A stretch of 64,000 nucleotides of DNA from Candidatus Hydrogenedentota bacterium (GTDB lineage: Bacteria > Hydrogenedentota > Hydrogenedentia > Hydrogenedentales > CAITNO01): positions 168 to 64,167 of the forward strand of contig JAKOTZ010000197.1 in the NCBI GenBank assembly GCA_029776995.1, given 5' to 3'. Under the pieces are notes generated by a model. That model was not told where the DNA came from, did not search any database, and saw only the letters and a program-made list of their open reading frames with translations. Shown here piece after piece: positions 7,045 to 62,315 of the stretch (the first letter of the stretch is position 1; the number at the start of each line of letters is the position of its first letter). The position numbers and the translations under genes are program-made.

Positions 7045-8691
7045 TTATCCGGTGAAATACAGGTACGCGCCCAGGATCAGCGACAGCACCACCGCCGTGT
7101 GCAGCACATCCCAGCGGTTCCAGCTGGACCGGATTTCCTGGCGTCCCTCTCCGGTTACCGTGGCGTAGGTCAGGTTCTGGATCTGTTTCGGGTCGGGCGG
7201 CGGCGTCAGCAGGCTGACCACCGTAAGCACTGCCGCGCAGAATATGAACAGGAACACGCAGAATTTCAGGAAATTGATCGTACCGAACCACACCAGCGCG
7301 GAGGCCAGCCCCGAGGCCAGCTCCGGATCAGGCAGGAGTCCCGCGTATACCTGGCAGGCCAGTTTGGCCATGCCTACCACAAAGCCGAGGACCAGCGCCG
7401 CCACCGCGCCCGGACCGTTAAGCCGTTTCCAGAACACGCCCATGAAAAACACGGCAGTCATGGGCGGCGCCAGATAGGCCTGAACGCTCTGGAGGTATTC
7501 GTACAGCGCCCCGGAAACCAGCTTCATCGCCGGAATCCACAGCAGCCCCAGCAGGACCACCACGGCGGTGGCTGCCCGCCCCACCTGCACCAGTTCCCGC
7601 TCCGGCGCCTCCGGGCGGTATTTCTTATAAATATCCACCGTGAAAAGCGTGGAACACGAATTAAACAACCCGGAGAGGGAGCTCATCAGCGCGGCCAGCA
7701 GGCCGCCGACCACCAGGCCCCGGATTCCCGGCGGAAGCAGCTGGGATACCAGCTCCGGAAAGGCCTGGTCCGGCCTCGACAGCGTAATCATGCCTTTCTG
7801 GTTCAGCGCGTAGGCGATCATACCCGGAATGATGAACAGAAACACCGGGGTGAGTTTCAGGTAAGATCCGAAAATCGCGCCGCGGCGCGCGATGGTCAGG
7901 TTGCGGGCGGCCAGGGTCCGCTGGACGATATACTGGTCCGTGCACCAGTACCACAGCCCGACAATCGGCGCCGCGAACAGCATGCCGGGCCATGGAAATT
8001 CCGGATCGCTTGCGGGACGCCACAGGTTGAACATCTGGCTCCCGCAGGTGGCCCGGAGTTCCTGCCAGCCGCCCAGATTGGACAGCCCGATGACCGTCAG
8101 GCTGAGCGAACCCAGGATCAGCACCAGGGTCTGCAGCGCGTCCGTGTATACCACGGCCCGCAATCCCCCGACCATCGTGTATACGCCCGTGATCAGCACC
8201 ACCGCCACCGCCCCGGTCCAGAAGCTGTCCAGGCCGAACAGCCGCAGCTCCGGCATCAGCGTGGCGATGACCACCCCGCCGGCATACACGGTAACGCTGA
8301 CTTTGGTAAATACGTACGCCACCAGGCTTACCAGCGACAGGATCCATCGGGCTGTCGGGCTGAAGCGCCGCTCCAGGAATTCGGGCATGGTGAACACCCC
8401 GGACCGGTAATAGAACGGCACCAGTACCCAGGCCAGCACGAGCAGGCACCAGGCGTGCAGCTCCTAATGCGCCATGGCCACCCCGCTTTTGGCGCCGGAT
8501 CCGGCCAGCCCGACCAGATGTTCGGATCCGATATTGGAGGCGAACAGCGAAGCTCCCACGGCGAACCAACCAACGTTGCGGCCCGCCAGAAAGTATTTTT
8601 CGGCAGTGTCCTGGCGCCGCGACGCCCACCAGGCTACGCCAGCCACGCCCACGAAATACGCCAGAATTACCGCCCAGTCCAGTAATGACAT
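7045..8691 (-). pseudogene. Sodium:solute symporter (SSS/SGLT family) interrupted by a single in-frame TAG at 8464-8466. It is either a pseudogene or a site of UAG read-through.
   Basis: ORFs 8464..8691 and 7045..8439 are in the same frame. The joined translation (...[55 protein letters not shown]) follows the SGLT N-terminal consensus without a gap, and there are no frameshifts. Confidence 0.8.
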
Positions 8692-13708: not shown

Positions 13709-14782
13709 TCAGCGGATAGGCACTTCCCGGTCTTTTGCGGATGACCGATAAATTGCGTCGATAATCTTCTGCACCATCAGCGATTCTTCGGGTTTCACCA
13801 GAACCGGCAGGTCCTGTTCCACGCAGGCGCAGAAATGGCGCACCTCCCGGCGGTGGCCGTCTTCTTTGGACAGCCAGTCCCAGGTGGTGCGGGTCAGCGA
13901 GTTATGGTCCGCGCCGAAGAGTCCGGGCGGGTTGGTGCTGATGCCGCCCTTATCCCCAAGGATAAAAACGGATTCCAGCTCTTTCTCGATATTGGCGGCC
14001 CAGGAAACGCAAAGGTTCAGGGTCAGACCGCCTTCGCAGCGGATCAGCGCCACGGCGTAGTCTTCCACGTCAAATTCCTGCGGTTTGTAGAGGATGGGCC
14101 AGTCCGCGTTGAACAGGTCTTTCCGGTCTCCGAACTTCCGGTATACCTTTCCGAAAGCCGCCACGGGTTTGGGGAAATTCATCAGCCACATGGCCAGGTC
14201 GATCACGTGCACGCCGATGTCAATCAGCGGTCCGCCAAGCGACTCGGCGGCAATGTGGAATTTACCCCATCCCGGGATGCCCCGGCGACGCATCCAACGG
14301 GCTTCGGCCGTGTAGATCTCTCCCAGCGCGCCGGACGCGGCCACTTCTTTCAGCTTTTCGGAGAGCGGATCGAATCGGAGGTACTGGGCGACCATCAGTT
14401 TCCGCCCGTTTTTCCGGGCGGCGGCGATCATGGCCTCGCATTCCCGGGCGTTCATGGCCATGGGCTTTTCCACCAGCACGTGCGCGCCGGCGCGCAGCGC
14501 GTCAATGGTTACCGGCGCGTGCAGGCGGTTCTGGGTACAGATGTCCACAATGTCAAAAGTCTTTTTTCGGAACATTTCCTTATAGTCAGAAAATACCTCT
14601 GCGGCCGGGCACGTGGCCGCTTCGGCTTCGCACCGGTCCACGAGAATATCGCACAGGCCGGTTACCTGGACCCGGCCTTCCGCTTCCAGTTCCCGCCAGT
14701 AGGGAAGATGCTGTTCCCGGGCGATGGCGCCCACGCCTACCACGCCTACCCGCAGGGGCGGTTTCTTTTTTCCTGTAGCCAT
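13709..14782 (-). CDS. Gfo/Idh/MocA family NAD(P)-dependent oxidoreductase
   Basis: N-terminal Rossmann motif VGVVGVGAIAR and an EKPMA motif. Confidence 0.8.
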   Translation of the reverse strand: MATGKKKPPLRVGVVGVGAIAREQHLPYWRELEAEGRVQVTGLCDILVDRCEAEAATCPAAEVFSDYKEMFRKKTFDIVDICTQNRLHAPVTIDALRAGAHVLVEKPMAMNARECEAMIAAARKNGRKLMVAQYLRFDPLSEKLKEVAASGALGEIYTAEARWMRRRGIPGWGKFHIAAESLGGPLIDIGVHVIDLAMWLMNFPKPVAAFGKVYRKFGDRKDLFNADWPILYKPQEFDVEDYAVALIRCEGGLTLNLCVSWAANIEKELESVFILGDKGGISTNPPGLFGADHNSLTRTTWDWLSKEDGHRREVRHFCACVEQDLPVLVKPEESLMVQKIIDAIYRSSAKDREVPIR

Positions 14783-22078: not shown

Positions 22079-23371
22079 TCAGATCAGCGGCATTTCCCCA
22101 GGCACGGCCACCGGCGGCACCGGGACATCTCCCATCTCGGGATGCTTCGGCGGCGTCAGGTCCAGTTTAGATTCCTTCAGGACAAAGTCCCAGGTGACCT
22201 CTTTCCCGGTGTAGGCTGACATCCGTCCCATGATGGCGGTCAGCGTGCTTTCCGTGACCTGTCGGGCCTCGTTCAGGGGCAGATCCTGGCGGATGGCCTC
22301 GATCAGGTGCGTGTGTTCGAGCACATAGGGATCCGCGTTTTCACCGGCATACTGGATAGTCCGCCCGTCGCGCAGGGTCAGCCCTTTACCGGGGTGGCCG
22401 GACCCCAGTGTTCCCGTGATGTATTCTTCCACCCGTTTATCCGTATCCTTCATCTGCCGGCACAGGCTCTGCACGCGGATGCCTCCGGGATATTCATATT
22501 CCACGGAAAAATGGTCGAAAATGTGCCCGTACACCGGATCGGTACGCTGCTGCCGTCCTCCCATGCCCAGGCACTTCACGGGATGGCTTTTCAGCGCCCA
22601 GTTCACCACGTCCAGATTGTGCACGTGCTGCTCCACGATATGGTCACCGGACAGCCAGGTGAAATAGTTCCAGTTCCGCAGCTGCCATTCCATGTCAGAC
22701 CACCCCGGTTCACGGGGCACGCCGGGATAATAGTCATAATCCCCCACCCAGTAGGCGGACGCGGCAACAATTTCGCCCAGCGCCCCCTGATGAATCTGCT
22801 CGATCAGGTACCGGTAAGGCGGCTGGTGGCGCCGCTGGGTGCCCGCGGCGACCTTCAGGCCTTTCTGTTCCGACAGTTCCGCGGCCTGGAGCATCCGGCG
22901 CGCTCCCGCGGGACAGACCGCCACCGGTTTCTCCATGAACACGTGCACCCCTTTGGCCACGGCCGCCTCGAAATGGTCCGGCCGGAATGCCGGCGGCGCG
23001 CACAGCAGCACAATGTCCACGCCGCTGTCCAGCACGCCATGGATGGCGTCAAACCCCGCAAAGCATCGGTCCGCCGTCACGTCGGCCTTGTCTCTCTAGG
23101 CGGCCATTTTTTGCATGGCTTCCCGGGCCCGTTCCGGAAACACATCGCCGACCGCTGTTATGCAGACATTGGCCGCCGCGTCCACGCAGTTCCGGGCCGC
23201 TCCCAGGCCGCGTTTCCCGCACCCCACCAGGCCTACCCGCAGTTTTGCCTCCGACTCGCCGCGCGCGGTCCGCAACACCGCGAACGTGGACACCGCCGCC
23301 GTAACCGTACCGCCAACCAGAAAATCCCGACGCGTCACGATGCTCATCTTTTTGCTCCTTGTTTCCGCCAT
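22079..23371 (-). pseudogene. TAT-signal Gfo/Idh/MocA oxidoreductase (GH109-like) interrupted by a single in-frame TAG at 23096-23098
   Basis: The N-terminal ORF carries an RRDFLVGG TAT signal and a Rossmann motif (LRVGLVGCGKRG). It is in the same frame as the 333-aa ORF, and the joined sequence reads ...EAMQKMAA*RDKADVTADRCFAGFDA..., continuing into the conserved core. Confidence 0.8.
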
Positions 23372-27449: not shown

Positions 27450-27899
27450 TCAGCCGGCGGAGTCCTGCTGTTCCGGGCCGGGATGTTCCGGCAGGGCTGG
27501 CGGCCGTTCCCGCCGGCGCTGGTAACGGAGCCGGGTCAGGACCCTGCGAAGTTCGCGGTCCAGAATTACCCCGGCCAGGGCATAGGCCTGGTCAGCGGGG
27601 GTGCTGCCTCCGGCCATTGCCTCCCGGAAGGCGTGTTCCGATATGTCCAGCACGTACAGTGCGGTCATCAGACGGTTGGGGCGGTTCAGCATCATCTCCA
27701 GCACCCGCCGGGCCAGCGCGCGCCGTACCGCTTCTTCAAACGAAGCCTGCTCATCCTGGCCGGGCAGGGAATGATCCAGGGCCACCTGCCATTTCCGGCC
27801 CAGCTCCCGGATCAGGGCCTGGCGGGCCTCCGCTTCGGGATCCGGCGGTTCTTCCGGCAAAAGAGGGTTTTCCGGGGAGGGCTCCTCAGGGCCAGTCAC
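27450..27899 (-). CDS. Hypothetical protein
   Basis: ORF only; 149 aa. Confidence 0.35.
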   Translation of the reverse strand: MTGPEEPSPENPLLPEEPPDPEAEARQALIRELGRKWQVALDHSLPGQDEQASFEEAVRRALARRVLEMMLNRPNRLMTALYVLDISEHAFREAMAGGSTPADQAYALAGVILDRELRRVLTRLRYQRRRERPPALPEHPGPEQQDSAG

Positions 27900-28926
27900 A
27901 GCGGATTTCCTCGCGCCGGCCGCTGGCCGCGCTGTCGTACATGGCCTGGATTACCGCCATGTACCGGATGCCGTCCTCGAAATCGGGATGGTAGGGGGTT
28001 CCCTCGCGGACCGCGGCGATGAAATCCGCTTCCACCCGCCAGTTCTGGACGTCATACGCCTCTTCCGGAAGCGGCGTGATCACCTGGTCCCGGCGGGTTC
28101 CGGAGACGGTCAGCCGGTCTGCCAGGGCGTCATACCGCATGACCCCCCGGTCGCCAAACAGCATGAGCGTCTCTTCCGTCCGGTCGCATACCCCGGAGAT
28201 GAAATACCCCGCGGTGACTTCATGGTCGAAGCCGGCTAGGGCCGTGATCTGGTCCGGGATCCGGATTTCCAGTTCCCCCCCCTGGCCGTCCGGGCGCCGG
28301 GGCGTGAAGATCCGGGTTTCCGCGCTGACCCACCGCGTCATGCCCAGCCACCGGTGCAGGACCTCAATCCACATGCCCAGGGTCTGCATGTTCAGGCCCG
28401 ACAGGCGGTGGTCTTTGCGCCAGGTTACGGGGGCCGACGGGTCCCGCCAGGTGGACTGTGTGCTGTGGACGCATACGTGCCGCGGGTTGCCGATGGCGCC
28501 TTCCTGGAGCAGCCGGAACACGGTCCTGTCCACGCTCAGGCCGAACGGCACCGGGCACAGGCCGGCCACTTTTCCGGACTGCCGGGCTGCCGCCAGCATG
28601 GCCCGGGCGTCTTCCAGATCCATGGCCATCCGCGCCTGGCAGAACACGTGTTTTCCCGACTGGAGCGCCGCCACCGACACCTCGCGGTGCAGGTAGGGCC
28701 AGGTCCCTACAAACACAATATCTATATCATCCCGCGCCACCAGTTCCTGCCATGAGTCGCACACCACCGGAATGCCGAATTCCCGCGCCGCTTTCTCAGA
28801 CGATTCCCGGGTCCGGTTCGCCACCGCCCGCAGCTCGATCCCCGGCAGCTTTTTCAGTCCCGGCACATGCCGCTGGCGGCAGATGCCGCCCAGGCCCACA
28901 AAACCGATCCGAAGTGTATTCATCAA
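27886..28926 (-). CDS. Gfo/Idh/MocA family oxidoreductase
   Basis: IGFVGLGGICRQRH Rossmann motif. Confidence 0.8.
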   Translation of the reverse strand: MMNTLRIGFVGLGGICRQRHVPGLKKLPGIELRAVANRTRESSEKAAREFGIPVVCDSWQELVARDDIDIVFVGTWPYLHREVSVAALQSGKHVFCQARMAMDLEDARAMLAAARQSGKVAGLCPVPFGLSVDRTVFRLLQEGAIGNPRHVCVHSTQSTWRDPSAPVTWRKDHRLSGLNMQTLGMWIEVLHRWLGMTRWVSAETRIFTPRRPDGQGGELEIRIPDQITALAGFDHEVTAGYFISGVCDRTEETLMLFGDRGVMRYDALADRLTVSGTRRDQVITPLPEEAYDVQNWRVEADFIAAVREGTPYHPDFEDGIRYMAVIQAMYDSAASGRREEIRCDWP

Positions 28927-42596: not shown

Positions 42597-44237
42597 TCAG
42601 AACGAACTGATCAGTCCGTCTGACGCCTCATAAGACGGGAACCGGACAATTACCGCCGCGCCGCCTTCCGCCCGGTTGCCCAGTTGGATGGTGCCGTTCA
42701 TCGCTTCCACGACGCGCTGGCAGATGGAAAGCCCCATGCCGGTGCCCCGCGGCTTTTCCGAATAGAAAGGCTCAAACAGTTTATTGATCTTATCGGGCGG
42801 AAAGCCCGGTCCCTGGTCTTCCACCCGTATTTCCAGCGCGTTTCCCGAGCGGCTGATTCTGACAATGGCTTCGCCGCGGCCGTCCATTGCTTCCATCGCG
42901 TTGTTCAGCAGGTTCATCAGCACCTGTTTCAGCCGCTGGGGGTCTCCCGCCACGCGGCATTCTGTTCCTTCCGGGATGATTTCCACCCGGATAGTCCCTT
43001 CGGGAAAGCGGTACCGGCACGCCTCGGCCGTTTCCATGGCCAGCGCGCACACGTCCACGGGATCCCATACCGTGATCTGGCCCGATCGGCTGAATTCAAG
43101 GAATCCCCCTACCACGCTGTTCAGATGTTCCGATTCCCGGTGGATCATATGGGCCAGGCGCCGGGTCAGTTCTCCTGTTTCCGGAATTCGGGCGAGTTCT
43201 TCCGCGGCGCCCCGGATCGTCGTTACAGGGTTCCGGATTTCGTGGGCCAGTTCCGCGGACAGTTCGCCGAGTACCGCCAGGTGGGCGTGGCGCTGCACCT
43301 CCTCCCGCATCCGCGCCATTTCGGTCAGGTCCGAGAAGGAGACGATGAGCAGGTGTTCCTTCCGGTGGTCTGACGGGGAGATCCGGTTTGTGGTCAGACC
43401 GATAACCCGCGTTCCCGACGGCGTTACCGCCCTGAACTCGTGGCTGATGTAGTCAATCTGTTTTTTCAGCGCCGTCAGCACGGGGCATTCCATGCCGGCT
43501 TCCGGCACTAAAACCGTTTCCACGGGTTTCCCCATGCATTTATCCGCGCTGCAGCCCAGGATTCGTTCCGCCGCCTGGTTCATGCCCAGAAGGCGTCCGT
43601 TGGGGTCCACCACCAGGAACCCGTTGTTCATGCGGTCCAGCACGTCGCGCTGGAACTGGGCCATCCGGTTGAGCCAGAAATTCCACAAACCGCTGATGAA
43701 GGCAATCGCGATCAGGCACAGAAAGATCAGCGTCTGGTCGTAGACGTGGAACAGGCGGTCGAGGTCGCCAGCGGGCCACGGGTAGGACGCGCCCCAAAGG
43801 AACAGGGATGAAAGAATCGTGAAAAATACCGCGGGAACCACACCCAGGAACAGCCCCGCCTCAAAGACCACCAGCAGCAGCAGGTACGTGGAGGCTCCTT
43901 TGATGTTGCCCGTAAAGCCGATTACCAGGCACACCAGCGCAAGGTCCAGGAAGATCTGCGCCCAGACCGCCAGGACCGGAAGACGGCTGCGCCGACCCTG
44001 CAGGAAAAGCAGATACGAAGCCCACCCCAGGCAGATAAACCCCGTGCCGAAAATGAATATCTGGAGAAATGGATGGCGCGGCAAAATGGCCGTGAAGGAA
44101 TTGGTCATGGCCATCAGGATGATGAGAATCCGGATCACGGCGGCCGCCGTCAACCAGCGGTGCGGCGCGAAAGGCGAAAGATACAGGTGAGCCGACCGGA
44201 CTCCCGATCCCTGTGATTCCGCCGGCGCGGGTGGCAT
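42597..44237 (-). CDS. Membrane sensor histidine kinase (PilS-like) partnered with the sigma-54 regulator
   Basis: Multi-pass transmembrane N-terminus, a PAS-like region, a HisKA H-box (LSAELAHEIRNP) and an HATPase_c domain. Confidence 0.8.
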   Translation of the reverse strand: MPPAPAESQGSGVRSAHLYLSPFAPHRWLTAAAVIRILIILMAMTNSFTAILPRHPFLQIFIFGTGFICLGWASYLLFLQGRRSRLPVLAVWAQIFLDLALVCLVIGFTGNIKGASTYLLLLVVFEAGLFLGVVPAVFFTILSSLFLWGASYPWPAGDLDRLFHVYDQTLIFLCLIAIAFISGLWNFWLNRMAQFQRDVLDRMNNGFLVVDPNGRLLGMNQAAERILGCSADKCMGKPVETVLVPEAGMECPVLTALKKQIDYISHEFRAVTPSGTRVIGLTTNRISPSDHRKEHLLIVSFSDLTEMARMREEVQRHAHLAVLGELSAELAHEIRNPVTTIRGAAEELARIPETGELTRRLAHMIHRESEHLNSVVGGFLEFSRSGQITVWDPVDVCALAMETAEACRYRFPEGTIRVEIIPEGTECRVAGDPQRLKQVLMNLLNNAMEAMDGRGEAIVRISRSGNALEIRVEDQGPGFPPDKINKLFEPFYSEKPRGTGMGLSICQRVVEAMNGTIQLGNRAEGGAAVIVRFPSYEASDGLISSF

Positions 44238-45322
44238 TACTCCCGCATTCCCTTTTCAACGAGGCTCTGCAACCCCTCCGGATCCATGCTGCGCTTAAAG
44301 GCCATTTCGGCGGTGATTACGCCCCGGCGCATCAGCCGGTAAAGCGACTGGTTCATCGTCATCATGCCCTCGCCTTTGCCGATTTCGATCATCGAGGGGA
44401 TCTGTTCCAGTTTTTCCTGCCGGATCAGCGACCGGATGGCCGTGTTGGGGATCATGATTTCCATCGCCAGTACCCGCCCCAGACCGTCCGCCCGGGGGAT
44501 CAGCTGCTGGACGACCACCCCCTCCAGCACGAAGGACAGCTGGGTGCGCACCTGCGCCTGCTGCGACGACGGAAACACGTCCACGATGCGGTTGATGGTC
44601 TGCAGCGCATCGTTGGTGTGCAGCGTGGCAAAGCACAGGTGGCCCGTTTCCGCCACGGTCAGCGCGGCCTGGATCGTTTCCGGGTCCCGCATTTCGCCGA
44701 TCAGAATCACGTCGGGATCCTGCCGGAGCACGTGTTTAAGCGCCGCGTTGAAACTCTTGGTGTCGGCGCCGACCTCCCGCTGGTTGATCACCGACAGCTT
44801 ATGCGTATGCAGGTATTCAATCGGGTCCTCAATCGTGATGATGTGGCATTTGCGTTCCCGGTTGATCTTGTCCAGAATAGCCGCCAGCGTCGTGGATTTG
44901 CCGCTGCCGGTGGGGCCGCACACCAGCACCAGGCCCAGGGGACGGTAGGCGAAATCGGCTATTACCCGGGGAAGCCCCAGCTGTTCGAAGGAAAGAATTT
45001 CATAGGGAATCGCGCGGAACGCGGCAACCACTGATCCCCGGTCCCGGTACACGTTCAGACGGAAGCGGCTCAGCCCCGCAATCCCGAAGGACAGGTCGCA
45101 CTCCTTTTCATCTTCGAAGTGCGCGATCTGGTCTTCATTCATTACGCTGTAAATCAGGTCGCGCGTCTGGTCAGCGGTGAGAGGCGGGTAATTCTCAATA
45201 GGCTCCAGCGAACCGTGGATCCGGAGCATGGGGGGCGCGCCTACCACAATGTGCAGGTCGCTCGCGCCGTCCTGGATCATCCGGGTCAGCATTTCTTTAA
45301 TACTCAGCACCGGCTGCACCAT
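44237..45322 (-). CDS. pilT: Type IV pilus retraction ATPase PilT
   Basis: Walker A (GPTGSGKSTT), the IITIEDPIE motif and a His box. Confidence 0.9.
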   Translation of the reverse strand: MVQPVLSIKEMLTRMIQDGASDLHIVVGAPPMLRIHGSLEPIENYPPLTADQTRDLIYSVMNEDQIAHFEDEKECDLSFGIAGLSRFRLNVYRDRGSVVAAFRAIPYEILSFEQLGLPRVIADFAYRPLGLVLVCGPTGSGKSTTLAAILDKINRERKCHIITIEDPIEYLHTHKLSVINQREVGADTKSFNAALKHVLRQDPDVILIGEMRDPETIQAALTVAETGHLCFATLHTNDALQTINRIVDVFPSSQQAQVRTQLSFVLEGVVVQQLIPRADGLGRVLAMEIMIPNTAIRSLIRQEKLEQIPSMIEIGKGEGMMTMNQSLYRLMRRGVITAEMAFKRSMDPEGLQSLVEKGMRE

Positions 45323-45422: not shown

Positions 45423-47144
45423 TCAATCCGCGATGGTATGTTCGAGCACCTGCTCGATCGAAGTCACCCCTCTGGCCGCCTTGGCCAGGCCCGCCTGGCG
45501 CAGGGTCTGCATGCCGCATTTCACGGCGGCTTCCTTGATCTGCTGGCCCGACGCGCGCTTAAGCACCAGCGGCTGGATTTCAGGCCAGTTCAGCATCACC
45601 TCGATGATGGCCGTCCGGCCCTTATAGCCGGTCTCTTTACACTTTGCACAGCCCCGGCCGTGGACAAACTGCGGTTCGGGAATGTAATCGAATCCGTGGT
45701 ACTGGATCCGCTCCAGCACGTCCTCCGGCATGTCAATGGGCTCTTTGCATTCTGAGCAGACCCGTTTCAGCAGGCGTTGCGCCGCCGCCAGCGCGACCGA
45801 CGACTGCACCAGGAACGGTTCCACGCCCATATCAATCAGACGCGGGAAGACGCCCGCCGCGTCATTCGTGTGCAGCGTGCTCAGCACCAGGTGGCCGGTA
45901 AGCGCCGCCTTGACGGCCACGTCTGCGGTTTCGCTGTCGCGGATCTCGCCCACCATCACCACGTCGGGGTCCTGGCGCAGGATCTGCCGCAGCGCCTCCG
46001 CGAAAGTGAACCCGATCTGATGCTTCACCTGTACCTGGTTGACTCCATACAGCTCGTATTCGATCGGGTCTTCTACCGTCACGATGTTCATGTCCGGCGT
46101 GTTAAGCTTATGCAGCGCGCTGTACAGGGTGGTCGTTTTACCGCTGCCCGTCGGACCGGTGAGCAGGATCATCCCGTGGGGCATGTTCAGCGCTTCCTGG
46201 AAGGCGGCCATCGCCTGCGGCTCGAAATCCAGCTTTTCTAGGTCCAGGGTCAGCTGGCTTTGGTCCAGCACGCGGAGCACCACCTTCTCCCCGTATTTGC
46301 AGGGCAGGAACGCCACGCGGAAATCCACGTCCCGGCCTTTGAACCGCATCCGGCAGCGGCCGTCCTGCGGCAGGCGGTGCTCGTCAATCCGGCATCCCGA
46401 CAGGATTTTCAGGCGGGCCACAATATTGGGAAACACGCTTTTCGGCGGCGCTTTGGCCTCTTCCAGTGTCCCGTCCACGCGGTAGCGGATGCGCATGTTC
46501 TTTTCGAACGGCTCGATATGGATATCGCTTGCGCCCCGTTCCAGCGCGTTGAATACGATAAGCCGTGTCAGCTGCTTGATCGGTTCGTCTTCCGCTGATG
46601 ATGCCGTCAGCGAGACGTCTTCAACTTCTTCTTCCGGGGCGTTGACCTCTTCCACTTCAGCCTGGCGGTCCAGCCCCTCGTTGATGGTCTTGAGGATATC
46701 GTCCGCTTTACCGCCGCCGTAATTCTGGTCGATAGCCTGGGTCAGCTCGGACATCACGGCGACCATCGGCTCGATTTCGTGCCCCGTGACAATCCGCAGA
46801 TCATCAATCGCCATAATGTTCAGCGGGTCCACCATGGCCAGGGTGAGCACATCGCCCGTCAGGGACAGCGGCAACACATGGTACTGGCGCGCCAGCGCTT
46901 CCGGAACCGTTTCCAGCACTTCCTTGGGGACCCGGTAATTCAGTACGCGGATGTGCGGAATGCCCAGGTGCTCGCTCAGCGTCACCACCAGGTCTTCTTC
47001 GCTCAGGTATTCTTTTTCGACCAGCAGTTGCGGCAGGCTTTTGCCCGTCCGGCGGTGCAGCGCCAGACATTCTTTGATCTGTTCCGCCGATACCAGCTGT
47101 TCTTCCAGCAGCATGTCTTCCAGTTTTTTGCGCTGTACTTTCAT
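45423..47144 (-). CDS. pilB: Type IV pilus assembly ATPase PilB (GspE family)
   Basis: N-terminal T2SSE_N domain, Walker A (GPTGSGKTTT), and a tetracysteine motif (CxxC ... CxxC). Confidence 0.85.
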   Translation of the reverse strand: MKVQRKKLEDMLLEEQLVSAEQIKECLALHRRTGKSLPQLLVEKEYLSEEDLVVTLSEHLGIPHIRVLNYRVPKEVLETVPEALARQYHVLPLSLTGDVLTLAMVDPLNIMAIDDLRIVTGHEIEPMVAVMSELTQAIDQNYGGGKADDILKTINEGLDRQAEVEEVNAPEEEVEDVSLTASSAEDEPIKQLTRLIVFNALERGASDIHIEPFEKNMRIRYRVDGTLEEAKAPPKSVFPNIVARLKILSGCRIDEHRLPQDGRCRMRFKGRDVDFRVAFLPCKYGEKVVLRVLDQSQLTLDLEKLDFEPQAMAAFQEALNMPHGMILLTGPTGSGKTTTLYSALHKLNTPDMNIVTVEDPIEYELYGVNQVQVKHQIGFTFAEALRQILRQDPDVVMVGEIRDSETADVAVKAALTGHLVLSTLHTNDAAGVFPRLIDMGVEPFLVQSSVALAAAQRLLKRVCSECKEPIDMPEDVLERIQYHGFDYIPEPQFVHGRGCAKCKETGYKGRTAIIEVMLNWPEIQPLVLKRASGQQIKEAAVKCGMQTLRQAGLAKAARGVTSIEQVLEHTIAD

Positions 47145-47234: not shown

Positions 47235-50126
47235 TCACGCCGCAGCTTCCGCACCTAAATGGTTCAACATTTCCTGCGCCATCTCCACGGTCAGGTCCTG
47301 TCCGATCAGTTTCGCGAAGGCCGCAATCTTTTTCAGCGCGCCGGTCATCTTCCGCACGTCGCCCGGAACCCGCATCGCGATGACCCCCAGCACCTCTTCC
47401 GGAACGGCCACGCCCAATTCCGAGGTCCGGTGCCGCAGGATCTTCATGCGCGTTTCCCATTCCGGCGCTTTCAGTTCCGCGACGATCCCGCTGGCAAACC
47501 GTGAAACCAGCCGCTGTTCCAGCAGGCCCAGACGGTCCGGCGCCTTGTCCACCACTATAATAATCTGTCTTTGCTCCTGGTGTAAAGCATTGAAAATATG
47601 GAAAAATTCCTCCTGCGCTTCAACCCTTCCCCCCAGGAACTGGATATCGTCCAGGATCAGCACATCCCAGTGGCAGTAATTCTCCCGGAACGCGTCCAGG
47701 GCGTTTTCGGCGGCGGCTTCCGCCAGGCGGCGGGCAAAGCGGCTTGCTGAAACGTAGCCCACCCGGGGCGGACTTCCTTTTTTTCCCTTTTGCCGCAGGA
47801 TGGCATTGCCGATCGCGCACACCAGATGGGTTTTGCCTGTTCCCACGCTTCCGTAAAGAAACAGCGGATTGTATTCACCCCCCGGGGATTCCGCCACGGC
47901 CTGGGCGATCTTGAAGGTGAACGCGTTGGCCGCCCCGGGGAAAAAGGTTTCAAAGGTCAGCGTCGCCAGCGGCTGTTCCGATTCCAGGGCCGCCAGCATT
48001 TTTTCATCGGCTTCGGCCCAGGCCTGGTCCGCTTCGGCAGACGGGCCGGGAGGGCCGCCAAACGGCGCGACCGACGCCAGCCGTTCTTTTTTCCGGCGGA
48101 CCTGGTCCTGCCGGTTGGCTTCCTCCATCAGGTGGCGTTCCAGCAGTTCAGCCACCTGCCGGGCAGACTGCCCGGCTGCTTCCGCCAGTTGCGCGAGGCG
48201 TTCCTGGCGCTCAGTCTGGTCTGATTTCACGTCGGTCAGGGAGGCCAGGGTTGCTTCAGCGAGCTGGGCCAGGCGGTTTTCCTGCGCTTCCCGGGATGCG
48301 CGCGTTTCCCGGACCACGGTTTCCAGGGCTTCCCGCATGGCTTCCGCCAGCGCGGATTCCCGGGTTTCCGACCGCTCCGCGATGGACGCCACCGCTTCCC
48401 GGACGGCATGCTGCAGCCGTTCCGCCAGCGCGCTCAGGGCTTCCTGTTCCGCCTCGGCGGATTTATCGCGCTGGGTCAGGGCCGCTTTCATCTGGACCAG
48501 CATGGCCGACATGGCCTCTTCGACGGCCGTGCCGACCCCTTCCTGCAGGCTGTGGGCCAGCCTGTCCCAGTCCGGCGGAGCCAGTTCCTGCCGCATGCCC
48601 GACAGCGCTTCCGATGTTTTTTGCAGCGTTTCTCCGACCGGTTCCATCGCGTCCCGAACCGCCGCCTTCACGGCCTCCCGCGTGGCCTGCGCCCAGGATT
48701 CCACATCGATCTGCGGCGGCTGGGGCCGTTCGGCTTCCTGGGCCATCAGTTGCCGGATCGGATCGCTCAGCGCGTTTACCGCGCTGGAGATGGTTCCCGC
48801 CACGGAGTTTTCCAGGTCTTCCGTGAGCTGTTTCAGCGCCTGTTGCAGCGTCGCGCCCTGGTCCGCCGGATCGTTAGCGGCCGGCGGACGGAGGGTTTCG
48901 CTCAGCGGCGCCAAACCGTCCCGCACCGCCTGGGCGACGGCGGTCCGCAAAGCATCCAGGTCCAGCGCGGAGGGGACAGCCGGAGCGTTTTGTTCGCGGG
49001 GCTCCGGGGGTGGCGCCGCGTTCTCCCTAACCCGGACGGCTTCAGCGACCGCTTCCCGGATTTCTGAAGCCAGCGATGAAAACGACGCGCTGATCTGTTC
49101 CTGAAACGCATCAAACGCGGGCCTGAGCAGTGCCGCGGGATCCGCCGGCGCGGCCGGAGCCGCAGGTTCCGCGGGAGCAGGCTGCAGGGCGGATTTCAGT
49201 TCGATGAGGCTTTCCCGGAATGCCGCCTGCATGGCCGTCGCCAGGCTTCTGGCCAGTGCGTCCGGGTCCATCGGCGGCGCCATGGCCGCCGCATCGTGGG
49301 CCGGTTGCGGCGGGGCGATCCGGATAGGTTTTTCGGCGTGTTCCTCCCGGGGGATCTCCGCTGGAGGCGTTTCGGTATACGTTTCCAGTTCCGCGGACGC
49401 GGCGCGCTCTGATTCCCGGATCGTGATTTTTTCCGGAGGGGCCGCGGGCGCTGCCGCGGGCGGGGTTTCCGCCTTCGGCGGAGGGGCGGCCGTTCCTCCG
49501 GCCGCGTGGGGTATGCCAAACGAGGCCGCATCTTTTTTGGGTTTCTTCCCGAACTGCCGTTCCACCACCGTGGCGAAGTGGTCCCAGTCGCACAGGATCG
49601 GTTTAATCCGCAGGTTGGGGCACAATCCCCGCACTTCATCCAGGGCAGCCTCGTCGAGGGGATCGATCATGGCCACGGTCAGGATACGCCCCAACTTGTC
49701 TATGGGCAGCAGTTTCAGCCGCAGGCAGACTTCTTCCGGCACCAGTTCCAGCGCCTGCTTATTGATGCTGTAGTCCAGCAGGTTCAGGTGGGGAATATTG
49801 AACTGTTTGACCACGAACTGCCGAATTGTGTCGTGGGTAACGTACCCCAGGGCCACAAGGCTCTGGCCCAGAAATCCCCCGTGTTCCTGCTGGTGCCTGA
49901 GTCCCTCAGCCAGCTGCTGGGCGGTTATGATGCCTTCTTCCACCAGCATCTCACCCAGCTTTTTCCGTTCCGGCGCCTGGCCGGATGGGTGCGGGACCGC
50001 GCGGCTCATTACCATTACCGGGCTCTCCGATGGCACGTATTCCAGTACGCGTATTGTAGCACGGCTGATCCTCTCGCGGGGAAGGTTTATGGTCGTGGTT
50101 CGGTCGGTATCCCGGCGGATTTCCAA
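47235..50126 (-). CDS. Large fusion protein: N-terminal GspE-N/MshEN-like domain, a long Ala/Pro/Glu-rich coiled-coil linker, and a C-terminal DnaA domain-III-like AAA+ ATPase (Hda-like, lacking DnaA domain IV)
   Basis: N-terminal motif KKLGEMLVEEGIITAQQLAEGLRHQ. The C-terminus reads TFETFFPGAANAFTFKIAQAVAESPGGEYNPLFLYGSVGTGKTHL ... ILDDIQFL, matching DnaA domain III, but there is no HTH after it. The true start may be about 50009 (MSRAV...). Confidence 0.7.
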   Translation of the reverse strand: MEIRRDTDRTTTINLPRERISRATIRVLEYVPSESPVMVMSRAVPHPSGQAPERKKLGEMLVEEGIITAQQLAEGLRHQQEHGGFLGQSLVALGYVTHDTIRQFVVKQFNIPHLNLLDYSINKQALELVPEEVCLRLKLLPIDKLGRILTVAMIDPLDEAALDEVRGLCPNLRIKPILCDWDHFATVVERQFGKKPKKDAASFGIPHAAGGTAAPPPKAETPPAAAPAAPPEKITIRESERAASAELETYTETPPAEIPREEHAEKPIRIAPPQPAHDAAAMAPPMDPDALARSLATAMQAAFRESLIELKSALQPAPAEPAAPAAPADPAALLRPAFDAFQEQISASFSSLASEIREAVAEAVRVRENAAPPPEPREQNAPAVPSALDLDALRTAVAQAVRDGLAPLSETLRPPAANDPADQGATLQQALKQLTEDLENSVAGTISSAVNALSDPIRQLMAQEAERPQPPQIDVESWAQATREAVKAAVRDAMEPVGETLQKTSEALSGMRQELAPPDWDRLAHSLQEGVGTAVEEAMSAMLVQMKAALTQRDKSAEAEQEALSALAERLQHAVREAVASIAERSETRESALAEAMREALETVVRETRASREAQENRLAQLAEATLASLTDVKSDQTERQERLAQLAEAAGQSARQVAELLERHLMEEANRQDQVRRKKERLASVAPFGGPPGPSAEADQAWAEADEKMLAALESEQPLATLTFETFFPGAANAFTFKIAQAVAESPGGEYNPLFLYGSVGTGKTHLVCAIGNAILRQKGKKGSPPRVGYVSASRFARRLAEAAAENALDAFRENYCHWDVLILDDIQFLGGRVEAQEEFFHIFNALHQEQRQIIIVVDKAPDRLGLLEQRLVSRFASGIVAELKAPEWETRMKILRHRTSELGVAVPEEVLGVIAMRVPGDVRKMTGALKKIAAFAKLIGQDLTVEMAQEMLNHLGAEAAA

Positions 50127-50184: not shown

Positions 50185-50718
50185 ATGCCCAGGCCCTGCC
50201 GCTGCAGAAAAATAGCCCATCTGGTTTCGTGGAACCGCTTCATCCCCCAAATCGGCGCGGAGAATATTTCGGAAGCCGGCGAAGTGGTCCTGACCCATGA
50301 TGAGCTGGAAGCCATTCGCCTGGCGGATCTCAGCGGGCTGTACCAGGAGGACGCGGCGAAGCTCATGAACGTTTCCCGCCAGACCTTCGCGCGGATCGTC
50401 GAGGCGGCCAGGCGTAAAGTGGCTGAGGCACTGTGCGAGGGAAAAGCAATACGCGTCGAAGGCGGCGCGGTGGAGGTTTGCCCTATGCGTAAATTCTGTT
50501 GCGCCAAGTGTGGTCACGGTTGGGAAGTTCCCCATGGGTCCGGACGTCCTGCCGGCTGTCCCGCCTGCGGGAGCGCGGCGTTTCACAGGAGCCCCGAGGA
50601 CCGGGGGTACGCCCGGAACGGTCCGCGTTGCCGCCGGGGTAATCGGGAAGGATGCGGCAGGACCGGCGGGGGACGGGGAAGGGCTGGTTTTTCCGCCGGG
50701 GATCCGGCTGAGCGATAA
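50185..50718 (+). CDS. DUF134/UPF0251 family putative DNA-binding protein with a C-terminal Cys-rich zinc-ribbon-like tail
   Basis: N-terminus MPRPCRCRKIAHLP..., HTH-like region (QEDAAKLMNVSRQTFARIV), and a C-terminal CxxC...CxxC motif. Confidence 0.65.
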   Translation: MPRPCRCRKIAHLVSWNRFIPQIGAENISEAGEVVLTHDELEAIRLADLSGLYQEDAAKLMNVSRQTFARIVEAARRKVAEALCEGKAIRVEGGAVEVCPMRKFCCAKCGHGWEVPHGSGRPAGCPACGSAAFHRSPEDRGYARNGPRCRRGNREGCGRTGGGRGRAGFSAGDPAER

Positions 50719-50770
50719 CGGGAACTGAAATGTACAGGTCAGTCCACACGTATAGCAAAGGAGCCTTTTT

Positions 50771-51214
50771 ATGAAAATCGCAGTTGCGTCCCGTGACGGC
50801 AAATATCTGTCAGAGCATTTCGGACAAAGCGCGTGTTTTGTGCTATTCACCGTGGCGGACGGTCGAATCACGGGGGAAGAGACCCGGATGAATGACCGCG
50901 GACACCACGGATCCGGGGGGGAGCACGGCGGGTGCCACGACCACGACCGCGGCGACTGCCATGGCCACGGCGGGGAAGAACACCACAGCCGGCACGCCCG
51001 GCACGGCCATGCCGGACTGCTGGCCCTGCTGCATGACTGCGAAGCGGTCATCTGCGGCGGAATGGGTCCCAGGGCTGTCCATGACCTGAAAAAACACGGA
51101 ATCCGTCCTGTGATTGCGGCCCGAAAGGATCTGTCTGTCCGGGACGTCGTCGAGGCGTATCTTGCCGGCGCGCTGGACGTTTCCGGAGCCACCTGTTCCC
51201 ATCACCGCCACTGA
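50771..51214 (+). CDS. NifB/NifX-like dinitrogenase FeMo-cofactor-binding-family protein carrying a His/Cys-rich insert
   Basis: MKIAVASRDG ... SEHFGQSACFVLF and LLHDCEAVICGGMGPRAV match the family. The insert is HHGSGGEHGGCHDHDRGDCHGHGGEEHH. Confidence 0.7.
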   Translation: MKIAVASRDGKYLSEHFGQSACFVLFTVADGRITGEETRMNDRGHHGSGGEHGGCHDHDRGDCHGHGGEEHHSRHARHGHAGLLALLHDCEAVICGGMGPRAVHDLKKHGIRPVIAARKDLSVRDVVEAYLAGALDVSGATCSHHRH

Positions 51215-54707: not shown

Positions 54708-55541
54708 ATGTCGCGTCTCGTTGTGCTCGTGGAAAATACCGCGTCCGGACGGGGGATACTGGCGGAGCACGGCCTGTCCTTCTGGATAGAGCACGGTGCG
54801 CGGCGGGTGCTTTTTGACGCGGGCCAGGGGTATGCCCTGCGGCACAATACCCAACAATTGGGCATCCCCCTGGAAACGGCTGATGCCCTGGTCTTGAGCC
54901 ACGGGCATTATGACCACACGGGGGGACTGGGGGAGGTCCTGGACGAAATCCCGGCCGCCAGGATATTCTGCCATCCCTTCGCCCTCTCATCGAGGTATGT
55001 CCGTGCCGCGGATGGTTCAGTCCGGGAGATTGGCATGCCCCGCGGGGTGGCGGAGAAAATCCGGGTGCTGGAAAATACCGTCTGGACGCAGGCTCCGACG
55101 GAGATCTTTCCCGGGCTCAGTGTGACAGGTCCCATCCCCAGGGCGAACGGCTTCGAGGATTCCGGCGGGGCGTTTTATTAGGATGAGGCCTGTCGGCGCC
55201 CCGACGCGTTCCCGGACGACCAGGCCCTTTTTCTGGAGGCCAAACAGGGCACATGGGTACTGCTGGGATGCGCCCACGCGGGAGTAATCAACACCCTGAA
55301 TTATGTCCGTGAACTTACCGGAAACCGTCCCCTCTGTGGAGTTATCGGGGGCATGCATCTGGTCTCCGCGGATCAGGAACGGTTGGGCCGTACGGTGGAG
55401 GAGCTGTGCCGCATGGGGGTGCGCTGTCTGATGCCGGCTCACTGTACGGGGTTCCACGCCATGGCGCGGTTATGGCAGGAGTTCCCGGAGGAGTATATTC
55501 CCTGTCCGGCCGGCGCCGCGGTTGATTTGGATGCTTTATAA
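54708..55541 (+). pseudogene. MBL-fold metallo-hydrolase interrupted by a single in-frame TAG at 55179-55181
   Basis: SHGHYDHTGG motif upstream of the stop. After the TAG the same frame continues without a stop (DEACRRPDAFPDDQALFLEAKQGTWVLLGCAHAGVINT ... MPAHCTGF), matching the conserved C-terminal half of this family. Confidence 0.8.
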
Positions 55542-58384: not shown

Positions 58385-59668
58385 CTATTCGTGGCGAAGC
58401 GCTTCGACCGGATCCATGTAGGCGGCCCGAAGCGCCGGATACAGCCCGAAAACCACCCCGATCAGGCCTGATATCGAAAAAGCGATCAGCGGCCCCCACG
58501 GCGTGACAATCGTCATCATCCCGCTGAAGTACGTGATCAGCCGCGGTATCAGTAATCCAAGCCCCACCCCGATAATCCCCCCCGTGCCGGACAGAATCAC
58601 GGTTTCCACAAGAAACTGAAGCACGATATCCCGCCGCCGGGCGCCCAGCGCCCGCCGGATCCCGATCTCCCGGGTCCGTTCCGTCACGCTGGCCAGCATG
58701 ATGTTCATGATCCCGATACCCCCCACCAGCAGGGATATCGCCGCGATCGCCCCCAGCACCGTGTTGAAGATCTGTTTGGTCCGTTCCGCCTGACGCAGCA
58801 GTTCCAGCGGAACCACAATCTCAAAATCACGCTTCTTCCGGTTCCGTTCCAGCACGGCTTCCGCCAGCCGCGCCACCGATTCCACCCGGTCCTGGTCGTC
58901 TACGTGAATGGTGACCTCGTGCAGCTGAACCTTTTCCGCCTGAAAACTGCCCGACGCGCGCCGCACCAGGATTTCCCCGAAGCGGTTTTTCGCCGTGGTA
59001 AGGGGAATATACAGCTGCCCGCCAAGCCTGGGCGTGTTCTCTGTTCCGCCGGTGTTGGGACCAGCGCCGCCGCTGTCCGCGATCCCGATAACCCGGTAAT
59101 AATCGGCGCCGATCCGTACCAGCTGGCCCAGCGGCGGGGATAGCGGAAACAGCGCCTGGCCCAGGGTCCGGTTCAGCACGCATACGTTGATCGACATCTC
59201 CGTTTCCAGATGCGTGAAAAAGCGCCCTTCCGTAACCCGCAGGTTCCGGATCTCCGGATACCACGGCACCACCCCCAGAATCTCTGCTTCCAGGCTCCGC
59301 GTCGCGTTGAATACCCGTTCCCGGATAATCCGCGCGGGCGCGTAGACCGTAATGCCGGGAATCGTGTCCCGAAGCCGCGAAAGGTCCAGGTACGTCAGGC
59401 CGTAATCGCTCACGAAACTCCGCTGCACGTTCAGTTTCTGTTCCTCCGACGGCTTGACGCTGCGGATGATGATGTTGTTGCTGCCCAGCTGGCGGATCTG
59501 TTCCTGCGCTTCAAAGCTGGCGCCCTCGCCCACGGCCAGCATCACGATCACCGAGCATACCCCGAAGATGATGCCCAGCGCCGTCAGCAGCGAACGCAGC
59601 CGGTGCAGCCACAGGCTCTTAAACCCCACCTTAATGGTCCGCCAGGTCAGCCGCGCCCAGTGGATCAT
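58385..59668 (-). CDS. ABC transporter permease (MacB/FtsX family)
   Basis: N-terminal transmembrane helix, a MacB periplasmic domain and a C-terminal FtsX-type bundle. Confidence 0.8.
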
Positions 59669-60384
59669 GGCCGCGCCTCCGCGGGCCGCGGGACGTTCCG
59701 CTGGTCCGATTCGATCTGCCCGTCCTTCAGCCGCACCACCCGTTCCGCCCGCCGGCCGATTTCGGGATCATGGGTAACCATGATGATCGTTTTCCCCTGC
59801 CGGTGCAGCTCGTCAAACAGCTCCAGAATTTCGGCGCCGGACCGGCTGTCCAGGTTGCCCGTGGGTTCGTCGGCCAGCAGCACCAGGGGATCGTTCACCA
59901 GGGCGCGCGCGATCCCCACCCGCTGCTGCTGTCCCCCCGAAAGTTCCATCGGCTTGTGGTGCAGACGTTCCGAAAGCCCTACCCGTTCCGCCAGTTCCAG
60001 CGCCCGCCGCCTTCCGTCCGGACGGGGTCGCAGCTGATAATAAAGAGGAAGCTCGATGTTCTCCAGCACGTCCAGCTGCTGGATCAGATTGTACGACTGG
60101 AAAATAAAACCCAACCGCGTGCCCCGGATCTCCGAAAGCGCGTCGTCGTCCAGCCTGGACACGTCCAGCCCCCCCAGCAGATACCGCCCTTCCGTCGGGC
60201 GGTCCAGGCATCCCAGCATGTTCAGCAGAGTCGATTTGCCGCACCCCGACGGCCCCATTACCGCCACGTATTCCCCAGGGTATATCGAAAGGTCGATTCC
60301 CCGAAGCGCTTCCACCGTTACCGTCCCCATCTGGTAACGTTTGATCACCCCCTGCAGCTGGACAATGGGTTCTTCCCCGTTCAC
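59665..60384 (-). CDS. ABC transporter ATP-binding protein (MacB/LolD type)
   Basis: Walker A (GPSGCGKST), signature (LSGGQQQR) and Walker B (LLADEPT). The GTG start overlaps the upstream TGA stop as GTGA; the ORF's long N-terminal extension is rejected. Confidence 0.8.
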
Positions 60385-62315
60385 GGCTGCTTTTCCCCTC
60401 CGGCGTTGCGTCGGCGCGGGGATTTCGGAGCTCCCCCATTTTCGCCGTTGGACGGTTGCCCTTCCTGCTGCGCGCCGGAATCCGGGCGTTCCAGCAGTAC
60501 GGTTTCGCCGGGCGTCAGCCCTTCCGTGATTTCGACCAGCGACGCGCTGAACGCGCCGGTCTTCACCGGCCGTTTCTCGGCGCCGGTCAGCGTTTTGACG
60601 TAACACACGGTCTGGCCGTCTTCCAGCGATACCGCCTGGAGCGGAACCTGTATCACGTCCTCCAGCCGACGCGTCACGATCTCCGCGCTGGCGGTCATGC
60701 CGGGCCGGAGCCACGGGTGGCTCCCCTCGATTTCGATTACCGTCGTGTAGACCTTCAGGTCCGGATTCATCCACCGGTTCTGCGGGTCGGGAAGCACGGA
60801 TATGCTGCTGACCCGCCCTTTCAGCATCTCGGTCGGCCGCGCGTCCACCCGGATCCGCGCCTCCTGGCCCGGCTGGATCTGCTCCACGAAGGCCTCGTGG
60901 ATCCGCACCTTCACCGTCATCACCGTCGTGTCCGGTATCGTGATCAGCACCTGCCGCTCCCGGACGCTCGCCCCCTCTTCGATTACGTCTCCGCCCATCG
61001 TGCGCTCCCCCGTACCATACAGCACCATCCCGGGACGCGTCGCCCGGATGACGCACTTGTCGATCTGGTCCAGCGTCTCTTCCAGTTTCTTCTTCTGCAG
61101 CATGTGCCGTATCCGCGCCGAATTCAGTTTCGACTCTGCCTGGGCCAGTTCGGATACCGCCCGTTTTTTCGCGCGGTCCAGATTCCGCAGCGCCTGCTCG
61201 TAGTCGCTGACCAGTTTCTCCACCTGTTTGGGAAGCTCATACTTCAGAAACAGCGCCTTGCTGGTCTCCGCCGCCTGCGACGCCACCAGTTTCCGGTTGT
61301 ACGCCAGCTCGTCGTTGTCCAGCTGGTTTTTGGTGACGAAATCCTTCGCGAACAGCCGACGGGTTCCCTCCAGTTTGGTCTCCGCGAGCCCCAGCTCCTG
61401 CCGGGCCAGCGCGACGTCGTTCTCCAGCTGGCGCATCTTCTGCATCGCGTCCCCGTCTCCGTAACGGGATGGGTCCAGAAACGCGCTCAGGTCAATCGAC
61501 GCGGTGAAGGATTCTTCCGCCGACGCTGCCTCGGGTTTCTCTTCAGGGGATCCGGTGTCGGCGGGTTCCGGTTCGGAATCGGAAGGCTGGGCGGATGGGG
61601 TTTCCCGGGGAGGCGCGTCCGCTTCCTTTATTTCCCCGTTTCCTGCGGCATCTCCCGGCTGGGCGTGTTCCGTGGATTTGCCTTCAGGCGGTTGCGGAGC
61701 AGGGGAAGAAGCAGAAGCCTCTTTTTCCTGGTTATTTCGTTTCGTGCGCCGTTTTTCTTCCCGCTGGTTCCGCTCGGCGATCCGGTCCTGCAGCTGTTTG
61801 GCAATTTCCGCCGCCAGGTTTTCCCCTATATATTTCGCCAGGTCCATCTGGGCGAATTTCACGGCCAGCTCCGCGGATTTGATGGCCGATTCATTATCGA
61901 TCAGCTGGATTTCGTAGCGCTCCTGAGCGTCAGTCAGGGCGGACAGCGTGTTCTGAAATTCGAGTTCCTGCGATACCCGCTGATCTTCCAGGTCTTTGGA
62001 GTCAAGGGTCATCAGGGGTTTGCGGTTCTTTACGTCTTCCTCGGTGATTAAGTACCCTTCTTCGACCAGCGTCAGAATCCTTGTACCTCCTTTCACTTCG
62101 CATTTGATCTGCTGGGATTCTTTGGCCTCGACCGTGCCGCCCTCTGCCACGGTGATTTCCAGGGGGCCCCGCGTCACGGGCGCGGTCAGGACTGTGCCGG
62201 CGGACCGGTTGCGGCCCTGCCACCACCGCCAGCCGCCGTAACCGGCGAGGATCAGCGCGCCGAGCAGGAGCAGCAGCCCCCAGCGTATTTTCCCTTCCCG
62301 TTTACTTCGTCGCAT
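60381..62315 (-). CDS. Efflux periplasmic adaptor subunit (HlyD/MacA family) with a Glu/Pro/Ser-rich low-complexity insert of about 130 aa
   Basis: N-terminal membrane anchor, coiled-coil region, and beta-barrel/MP domains at the C-terminus. Confidence 0.75.
   Translation of the reverse strand: MRRSKREGKIRWGLLLLLGALILAGYGGWRWWQGRNRSAGTVLTAPVTRGPLEITVAEGGTVEAKESQQIKCEVKGGTRILTLVEEGYLITEEDVKNRKPLMTLDSKDLEDQRVSQELEFQNTLSALTDAQERYEIQLIDNESAIKSAELAVKFAQMDLAKYIGENLAAEIAKQLQDRIAERNQREEKRRTKRNNQEKEASASSPAPQPPEGKSTEHAQPGDAAGNGEIKEADAPPRETPSAQPSDSEPEPADTGSPEEKPEAASAEESFTASIDLSAFLDPSRYGDGDAMQKMRQLENDVALARQELGLAETKLEGTRRLFAKDFVTKNQLDNDELAYNRKLVASQAAETSKALFLKYELPKQVEKLVSDYEQALRNLDRAKKRAVSELAQAESKLNSARIRHMLQKKKLEETLDQIDKCVIRATRPGMVLYGTGERTMGGDVIEEGASVRERQVLITIPDTTVMTVKVRIHEAFVEQIQPGQEARIRVDARPTEMLKGRVSSISVLPDPQNRWMNPDLKVYTTVIEIEGSHPWLRPGMTASAEIVTRRLEDVIQVPLQAVSLEDGQTVCYVKTLTGAEKRPVKTGAFSASLVEITEGLTPGETVLLERPDSGAQQEGQPSNGENGGAPKSPRRRNAGGEKQP

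Follow-up and report, generated by a model that had tools for sequence, protein, structure and literature searches.

In-frame stop codons that interrupt conserved bacterial genes can be viewed against several described systems. Pyrrolysine systems (pylTSBCD) have an in-frame UAG inside a conserved open reading frame, at a position that is itself conserved. Amber suppression is known from supE/supF-type tRNAs and from RF1-deficient strains, and the tRNAs for Gln, Tyr and Trp are known to misread UAG. Bacterial nonsense pseudogenes and null alleles differ by one base from the intact gene, lose catalytic motifs and carry no recoding signal. Hydrogenedentota are reported to have tRNA-Trp(CCA) solely in the form with a 4-bp anticodon stem, which, when tested in E. 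coli, favours read-through of UGA as Trp (PMC13092985, 2026); the finding bears on UGA and not on UAG.

The window analysed here, a 64-kb stretch of DNA from a metagenome-assembled bacterium of this phylum, has an MBL-fold gene with a premature in-frame TAG. Read through, its product can be aligned over the whole length to COG1237-type MBL proteins (2P4Z, 3H3E) and has all of their invariant motifs, but unlike these proteins the window gene is cut at codon 158. With bacterial null alleles it shares the one-base difference, the loss of catalytic motifs, the absence of a recoding signal and the company of another type of disruptive allele (TGA), and the frequency likewise fits a recent mutation that has not been purged. 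Nothing essential sets it apart from the usual null alleles; what stands out is that a single 64-kb window has three, and that several independent assemblies have two of these as consensus. The likeness to amber suppression lies in the Gln, Tyr and Trp sites and in alleles that are seemingly well tolerated. Unlike amber suppression, no suppressor tRNA is seen, TAG terminates, the premature TAGs lack conservation, and the mutation spectrum accounts for how many there are and of which type. The likeness to pyrrolysine systems is the in-frame UAG inside a conserved open reading frame, whereas the gene families are the wrong ones, the UAG position is not conserved, sense-codon alleles exist and pyl genes are absent from the window.

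The features discussed below are as follows.

54708-55541, + strand: MBL-fold gene, complete frame including the stop, with a 277-codon read-through product
54708-55178, + strand: N-terminal part of the MBL gene, 157 codons, with the HxHxDH motif (H65, H67, D69, H70); four other assemblies have gene calls for the same 157-aa product
55179-55181, + strand: premature TAG that arose from the Gln158 codon CAG through C>T transition of base 55179; C at 55179 in L001-L004 and L179-L183, Q in protein P0370
55182-55541, + strand: C-terminal 119 codons of the MBL gene and TAA, presumably untranslated; DDQA, GCAH, H217 and HCTG invariant (alignment, 2P4Z match)
23096-23098, − strand: second in-frame TAG, in a TAT-signal Gfo/Idh/MocA oxidoreductase gene (22079-23347); intact allele TGG (Trp)
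8464-8466, − strand: third in-frame TAG, in an Na+/solute (SSS) symporter gene (7045-8691); intact allele TAC (Tyr)
48567-48569, − strand: TGG codon of a 926-aa MshEN + DnaA/Hda-like gene (47235-50015); TGA in L005 and L006, intact in the window
58385-58387, − strand: TAG terminator of a MacB-like permease gene (58385-59668), a control; the protein ends with the solved MacB chains

The interrupted MBL-fold gene and its intact alleles

The open reading frame at 54708-55181 (+) terminates in ...SGGAFY, followed by the TAG at 55179-55181. Past this codon there are 119 more sense codons in frame, then a TAA at 55539-55541; the stretch reads DEACRRPDAFPDDQALF...GCAHAGVINT...MPAHCTGF...DLDAL. With X placed at the stop, the read-through product matches Pfam Lactamase_B (PF00753; 2.1e-12), and a database protein search finds 5437 homologues at E≤0.001. 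The best 120 of these 5437 each consist of one polypeptide, about 271-312 aa long, and cover 96-100% of the query. In a 24-sequence alignment, the invariant columns past the stop include D170 D171 Q172 A173 and G187 C188 A189 H190, as well as H217 and H245 C246 T247 G248. The closest solved structure is 2P4Z (E = 1.9e-36), matched as one domain over residues 5-251. The HxHxDH motif, the downstream His/Cys/Asp motifs and the full-length alignment, in which homologues span 99% of it, place the product in the PF00753 superfamily as a COG1237-like protein.

Pfam, the homologues and 2P4Z thus bear out the proposal, made in a preliminary description of this DNA, that an MBL-fold gene is split by an in-frame TAG. 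The same description gave 120 conserved codons after the stop; the conserved C-terminal half stands, and the count becomes 119 sense codons and a TAA. Judged from these alignments, the stretch past the TAG is real, conserved coding sequence. Homologues vary in the column of the TAG itself (K, L, T, R, V, A, E, S and further residues), and thus there is nothing special about the site. Scans of genome and metagenome contigs with the MBL protein, which matched through the generic HGHYDHTG pattern, gave among the matches listed relatives of at most 60% identity and not the species itself. For the downstream half dN/dS is uninformative, with just one synonymous change over its 360 bp. The family name used by JGI, 'dihydropterin...aminobenzene phosphate synthase', seems to have been transferred automatically.

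Genes of the DUF134 and Nitro_FeMo-Co (NifX/NifB-like) families precede the MBL gene on the same strand, in the 50185-51214 region. Also upstream are an ABC-2 transporter pair and a gene for a 467-aa protein whose sole Pfam match, to TPR_17, is below threshold.

Another four independent assemblies encode the same 157-aa product, namely NCBI GCA_035401585.1, ENA ERZ746980, ENA ERZ27257421 and JGI 3300025609, and are 99.8-99.9% identical to the window in DNA sequence over 1-15 kb. With the window this makes five independent assemblies that have the TAG, which is thus a real allele and not a sequencing error. Other assemblies, also 99.8-99.9% identical to the window, have CAG at codon 158 (L179-L183: JGI 3300010327, JGI 3300009761, ENA ERZ795381, ENA ERZ27257418 and Logan SRR18360461), and the sole difference in this codon is C/T at 55179. 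The protein P0370 (NCBI entry HOQ89719.1, also in JGI, ENA and Logan) is the read-through product with Gln at 158 and is otherwise identical. A more distant strain (L001-L004; 98.5-99.4% identity) likewise has CAG, and the nearest other relatives (≤67% identity) have a sense codon at the position. Since CAG occurs both in near-identical assemblies and in the more distant strain, the TAG is the derived state. It is also linked to a haplotype: those TAG carriers that cover both 53529 and 53563 (L005-L007) have the window bases at these sites, and the CAG carriers with the same coverage (L179-L181) have the alternatives.

The preliminary description held that a sense codon in the raw reads would speak against its reading. 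In substance such a codon is present, in the form of the CAG of other assemblies of the same species. The host species is nearly clonal and widely sampled.

TAG as terminator and the other premature stops

A gene call based on codon usage gives 56 genes in the window, with TGA as the stop in 34, TAA in 13 and TAG in nine. One TAG-ending call, at 50843-51211 (−), was judged false, and the gene calls in fetched loci disagree with it. Exactly three TAGs in the window precede a strong in-frame coding signal, namely those at 55179-55181, 23096-23098 and 8464-8466. Five other predicted genes stop at TAG, where read-through would add 33-231 codons. Coding scores of these extensions are negative or negligible, except for one extension that enters the next, separately called gene, and the lengths of the TAG-ending genes agree with those given by independent gene callers in other assemblies. 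The MacB-like permease is a good example: residues 13 to 426-427 of its 427 align to solved MacB chains and reach positions 663/664, 670/671 and 419/419 of these. From such gene ends, TAG is seen to function as a terminator in the window. In-frame TGA, in-frame TAA and frameshifts were not seen in the window's own 56 genes.

The oxidoreductase TAG is 32.1 kb and the symporter TAG 46.7 kb from that of the MBL gene. The preliminary description is right that the three are independent loci and that the MBL gene is on the + strand, but its distance of 32 kb from both others holds for the oxidoreductase only. An intact oxidoreductase allele, with TGG and otherwise identical, is found in P0363, P0364 and L178. 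The TAG allele is private to the window's own contig according to the cluster listing; a look-up of the 83-aa N-terminal fragment gave no exact match, and the cluster listing for this fragment gives the window's contig only. The window has at least three Gfo/Idh/MocA paralogues, and three are present within 15 kb, all on the − strand (13709-14782, the TAG-interrupted 22079-23347, and 27886-28899), and this redundancy probably makes the loss of the oxidoreductase tolerable.

For the symporter, an intact allele with TAC and otherwise identical is found in P0121, L013 and L014. Its Tyr at the TAG site is invariant in 120/120 homologues, and the TAG allele is found in four other assemblies. Besides the window, four independent assemblies have the TAG as consensus in the MBL gene and four in the symporter gene, and these two alleles are therefore not strongly deleterious.

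In the intact alleles the three sites are Gln (MBL), Trp (oxidoreductase) and Tyr (symporter), each one base from TAG. It had been suggested that a single residue favoured at all three sites would hint at the identity of a suppressor; the homologues and alleles give three. Three different ancestral residues, all one base from TAG, point to independent point mutations and not to a defined codon meaning. The alleles also occur in differing combinations among samples, as expected for independent mutations. The symporter TAG is found together with an intact MBL gene in JGI 3300010327, JGI 3300009761, ERZ795381 and ERZ27257418 (L009-L012/L179-L183), both genes are intact in SRR18360461, and both have TAG in the window. 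These mixed combinations could stem from recombination, from recurrent mutation or from a MAG contig that is a mosaic.

Premature stops in the population are not confined to TAG. In the siblings L005 and L006 the TGG at 48567-48569 is TGA, and in the TGA assemblies the 926-aa gene is called in pieces (P0507, P0510 and P0512). The preliminary description had looked to many TGA- or TAA-interrupted genes elsewhere as evidence against itself; there is one of this kind, in the siblings. The TGA might be partly read through as Trp, and would then be less harmful than it looks. Near this codon the window differs from L005/L006 by two synonymous third-position G>A changes, at 48360 and 48369. The 926-aa protein is an unusual fusion, with an N-terminal part of the MshEN type (c-di-GMP-binding) and a C-terminal DnaA/Hda-like AAA+ part (partial match to TIGR00362, 6e-85), and its gene adjoins those of PilB-like (45423-47144) and PilT (44237-45322) ATPases.

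Mutation spectrum, recoding signals and alternative explanations

The window was compared with 18 assemblies that are at least 99.8% identical to it, over 56.4 kb covered. This census gives 62 variable sites, of which 29 are synonymous, 27 non-synonymous, four nonsense and two intergenic; 56 are transitions and six transversions. Among the differences private to the window (relative to L005-L014 and L176-L183), 27/30 are G:C>A:T, and 26 of these 27 are transitions. The skew could represent a universal mutation bias before selection, a repair defect of the sub-lineage, or cytosine-deamination noise at low coverage.

Codon usage in the window includes 620 CAG, 289 TGG, 60 CGA and 42 CAA. When the spectrum is applied to this codon usage, the ratio of non-synonymous to synonymous changes expected under neutrality is 1.27 versus 0.93 observed, which indicates weak purifying selection. 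The same calculation predicts that 70% of new stops are TAG, 27% TGA and 3% TAA. All three stops in the window are TAG (P = 0.34), as are three of four in the population, and thus the TAG share is what mutation alone predicts. New stops are mostly TAG because the spectrum is G:C>A:T and because CAG and TGG are the commonest one-step stop precursors in the genome. Nonsense sites number four, versus 2.5 expected under neutrality per 29 synonymous sites (P of four or more = 0.24). If nonsense changes were purged like missense changes, about 1.0 would be expected versus four (P = 0.02 under a kappa-10 model), a comparison based on small numbers and on a window that was flagged for these very events.

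Cluster listings for a further 20 window genes show mostly contig-end fragments, with a few frameshift-like or chimeric tails such as that of P0519, and no clean nonsense alleles beyond those known were seen there. P0519 (ENA) is an 828-aa variant of a 644-aa HlyD-like adaptor (60381-62315, −), and its tail is seemingly frameshifted into the downstream ABC ATPase gene; it may represent an indel allele or a misassembly.

Signals for recoding were sought at several levels. RNA folding of 131-nt stretches beginning 9 nt upstream of the three TAGs is no stronger than that of shuffled sequences, with z-scores of 0.35, 0.12 and -1.02, and a context alignment revealed no sequence motif shared by the three sites. 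The window has one tRNA, Ala-GGC, and no tRNA(CUA) is present in the window and a few kb of its flanks, nor did ARAGORN find one in the fetched loci, which are mostly from other phyla. Annotated genes of the 64-kb window and the fetched loci include no pyl genes, no pylT and no release-factor genes. A literature search on Hydrogenedentes and pyrrolysine gave nothing relevant, and one on Hydrogenedentes/Hydrogenedentota and stop codons gave only the paper on the 4-bp-stem tRNA-Trp, which concerns UGA (PMC13092985). As candidates, UAG reassignment and pyrrolysine are both very improbable. For the former, TAG terminates genes, no single residue is found at the sites, and the in-frame UAGs are not a shared feature of related genomes, since assemblies 99.8-99.9% identical have CAG, TGG or TAC instead. 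For the latter, there is no conserved UAG position, and the MBL, Gfo/Idh/MocA and SSS genes have intact orthologues that all carry sense codons.

How should the three TAGs then be explained? That UAG is specifically recoded, as pyrrolysine or a different amino acid in a changed or expanded code, is favoured only by the presence of three in-frame TAGs in conserved genes. The sites differ in residue, and identical proteins with sense codons occur in the same species; the interrupted genes do not encode methylamine methyltransferases, neither pyl genes nor pylT occur in the window, TAG terminates genes normally and there is no structure downstream. The probability left to this explanation is minute, and it is already effectively refuted. 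A wrong consensus base or a chimeric contig, i.e. an artefact of sequencing, assembly or binning, is just as hard to credit. Some assemblies have a coverage of about 2.5-3x according to contig names, the private G:C>A:T skew can also be produced by DNA damage, and the oxidoreductase TAG is in the window's contig only. Against this, the window has T at 55179, as do four independent assemblies (NCBI, two ENA projects and JGI), and this T is linked to the consistent haplotype at 53529 and 53563. Positively selected loss of the MBL, symporter and oxidoreductase genes in the sampled habitats would account for null alleles that are the consensus in several independent assemblies, as two of them are, and for different sub-lineages inactivating different accessory genes. 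It is quite improbable, as each gene has one null allele and no recurrent independent hits, the counts fit neutrality and no functional link among the three genes is evident.

Nonsense suppression, or leaky UAG termination, throughout the lineage is somewhat less improbable, but still unlikely. Premature TAGs would then be near neutral and would accumulate, and full-length MBL protein would go on being produced, with read-through at a useful rate brought about by a suppressor tRNA, by a weak or absent RF1, or by near-cognate decoding by tRNA-Gln, tRNA-Tyr or tRNA-Trp. There are three in-frame TAGs in 56 genes while TGA, TAA and frameshift disruptions are absent from the window; nonsense alleles are near neutral frequency and form the consensus in several independent assemblies; and the ancestral residues Gln, Tyr and Trp match the tRNAs that misread UAG. 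The 4-bp-stem tRNA-Trp(CCA) makes unusual decoding conceivable in the phylum, for UGA but not for UAG (PMC13092985). Yet a TAG share of about 70% and the number of events observed already follow from the mutation spectrum together with codon usage. TAG ends ordinary genes at normal frequency, where read-through would add the 33-231 codons given above, tRNA(CUA) is missing from the window and the fetched loci, a TGA allele exists as well, and no TAG is conserved beyond strains that are about 99.9% identical. A broader form, which is somewhat more doubtful, would have termination leaky in general, with UGA read by the 4-bp-stem tRNA-Trp(CCA) and UAG by a suppressor or by near-cognate tRNA-Gln/Tyr/Trp, so that premature stops would be nearly neutral and the interrupted genes, that of the MBL protein included, would give some full-length protein. 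Suppression is not needed to explain the data. Nor is the suppressor or recoded TAG implied in the preliminary description supported, in view of the three residues, the CAG alleles, the TGA allele of the siblings and the TAGs that terminate ordinary genes.

A probable young null allele and its meaning

The MBL TAG is a recent nonsense mutation and probably a segregating null allele or pseudogene in the making. A single C-to-T transition turned codon 158 from CAG (Gln) into TAG in one sub-lineage, and translation would stop at this codon. The predicted 157-residue fragment keeps HxHxDH but not the motifs of the second half (DDQA, H190, H217 and H245/C246), and without these conserved His/Cys motifs it is likely to be inactive. 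The allele may persist because the gene is dispensable and because purifying selection has not yet acted on recent variation; in this nearly clonal population its persistence is probably a matter of drift or hitch-hiking. The two other TAGs of the window and the TGA of the siblings are independent events of the same kind. The affected genes are of accessory or redundant families.

The gene has the marks of a pseudogene, in that the stop is one base from the sense codon of an otherwise identical allele and residues required by the family are lost. Some observations do not sit easily with a null allele: nonsense changes are not rarer than expected under neutrality, which is a mild tension; two of the TAG alleles are the consensus in other assemblies; the symporter TAG is widespread yet replaces an invariant Tyr; and the window's own genes have no in-frame TGA or TAA and no frameshift. 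The MBL TAG nevertheless belongs to a kind of thing that is already known, the ordinary young pseudogene.

As it stands, the finding is of little consequence, as it concerns a fresh pseudogene allele in an uncultured, metagenome-assembled bacterium. It does offer a caution, in that where CAG and TGG codons abound in a GC-rich MAG, a G:C>A:T spectrum can give rise to clusters of in-frame TAGs that resemble recoding, with the code unchanged. Should it be true that read-through makes nonsense alleles tolerated, this would bear on how stop-codon reassignments begin, and with a generally leaky termination the species would represent a natural bacterial population at the tolerant first step of such a reassignment.
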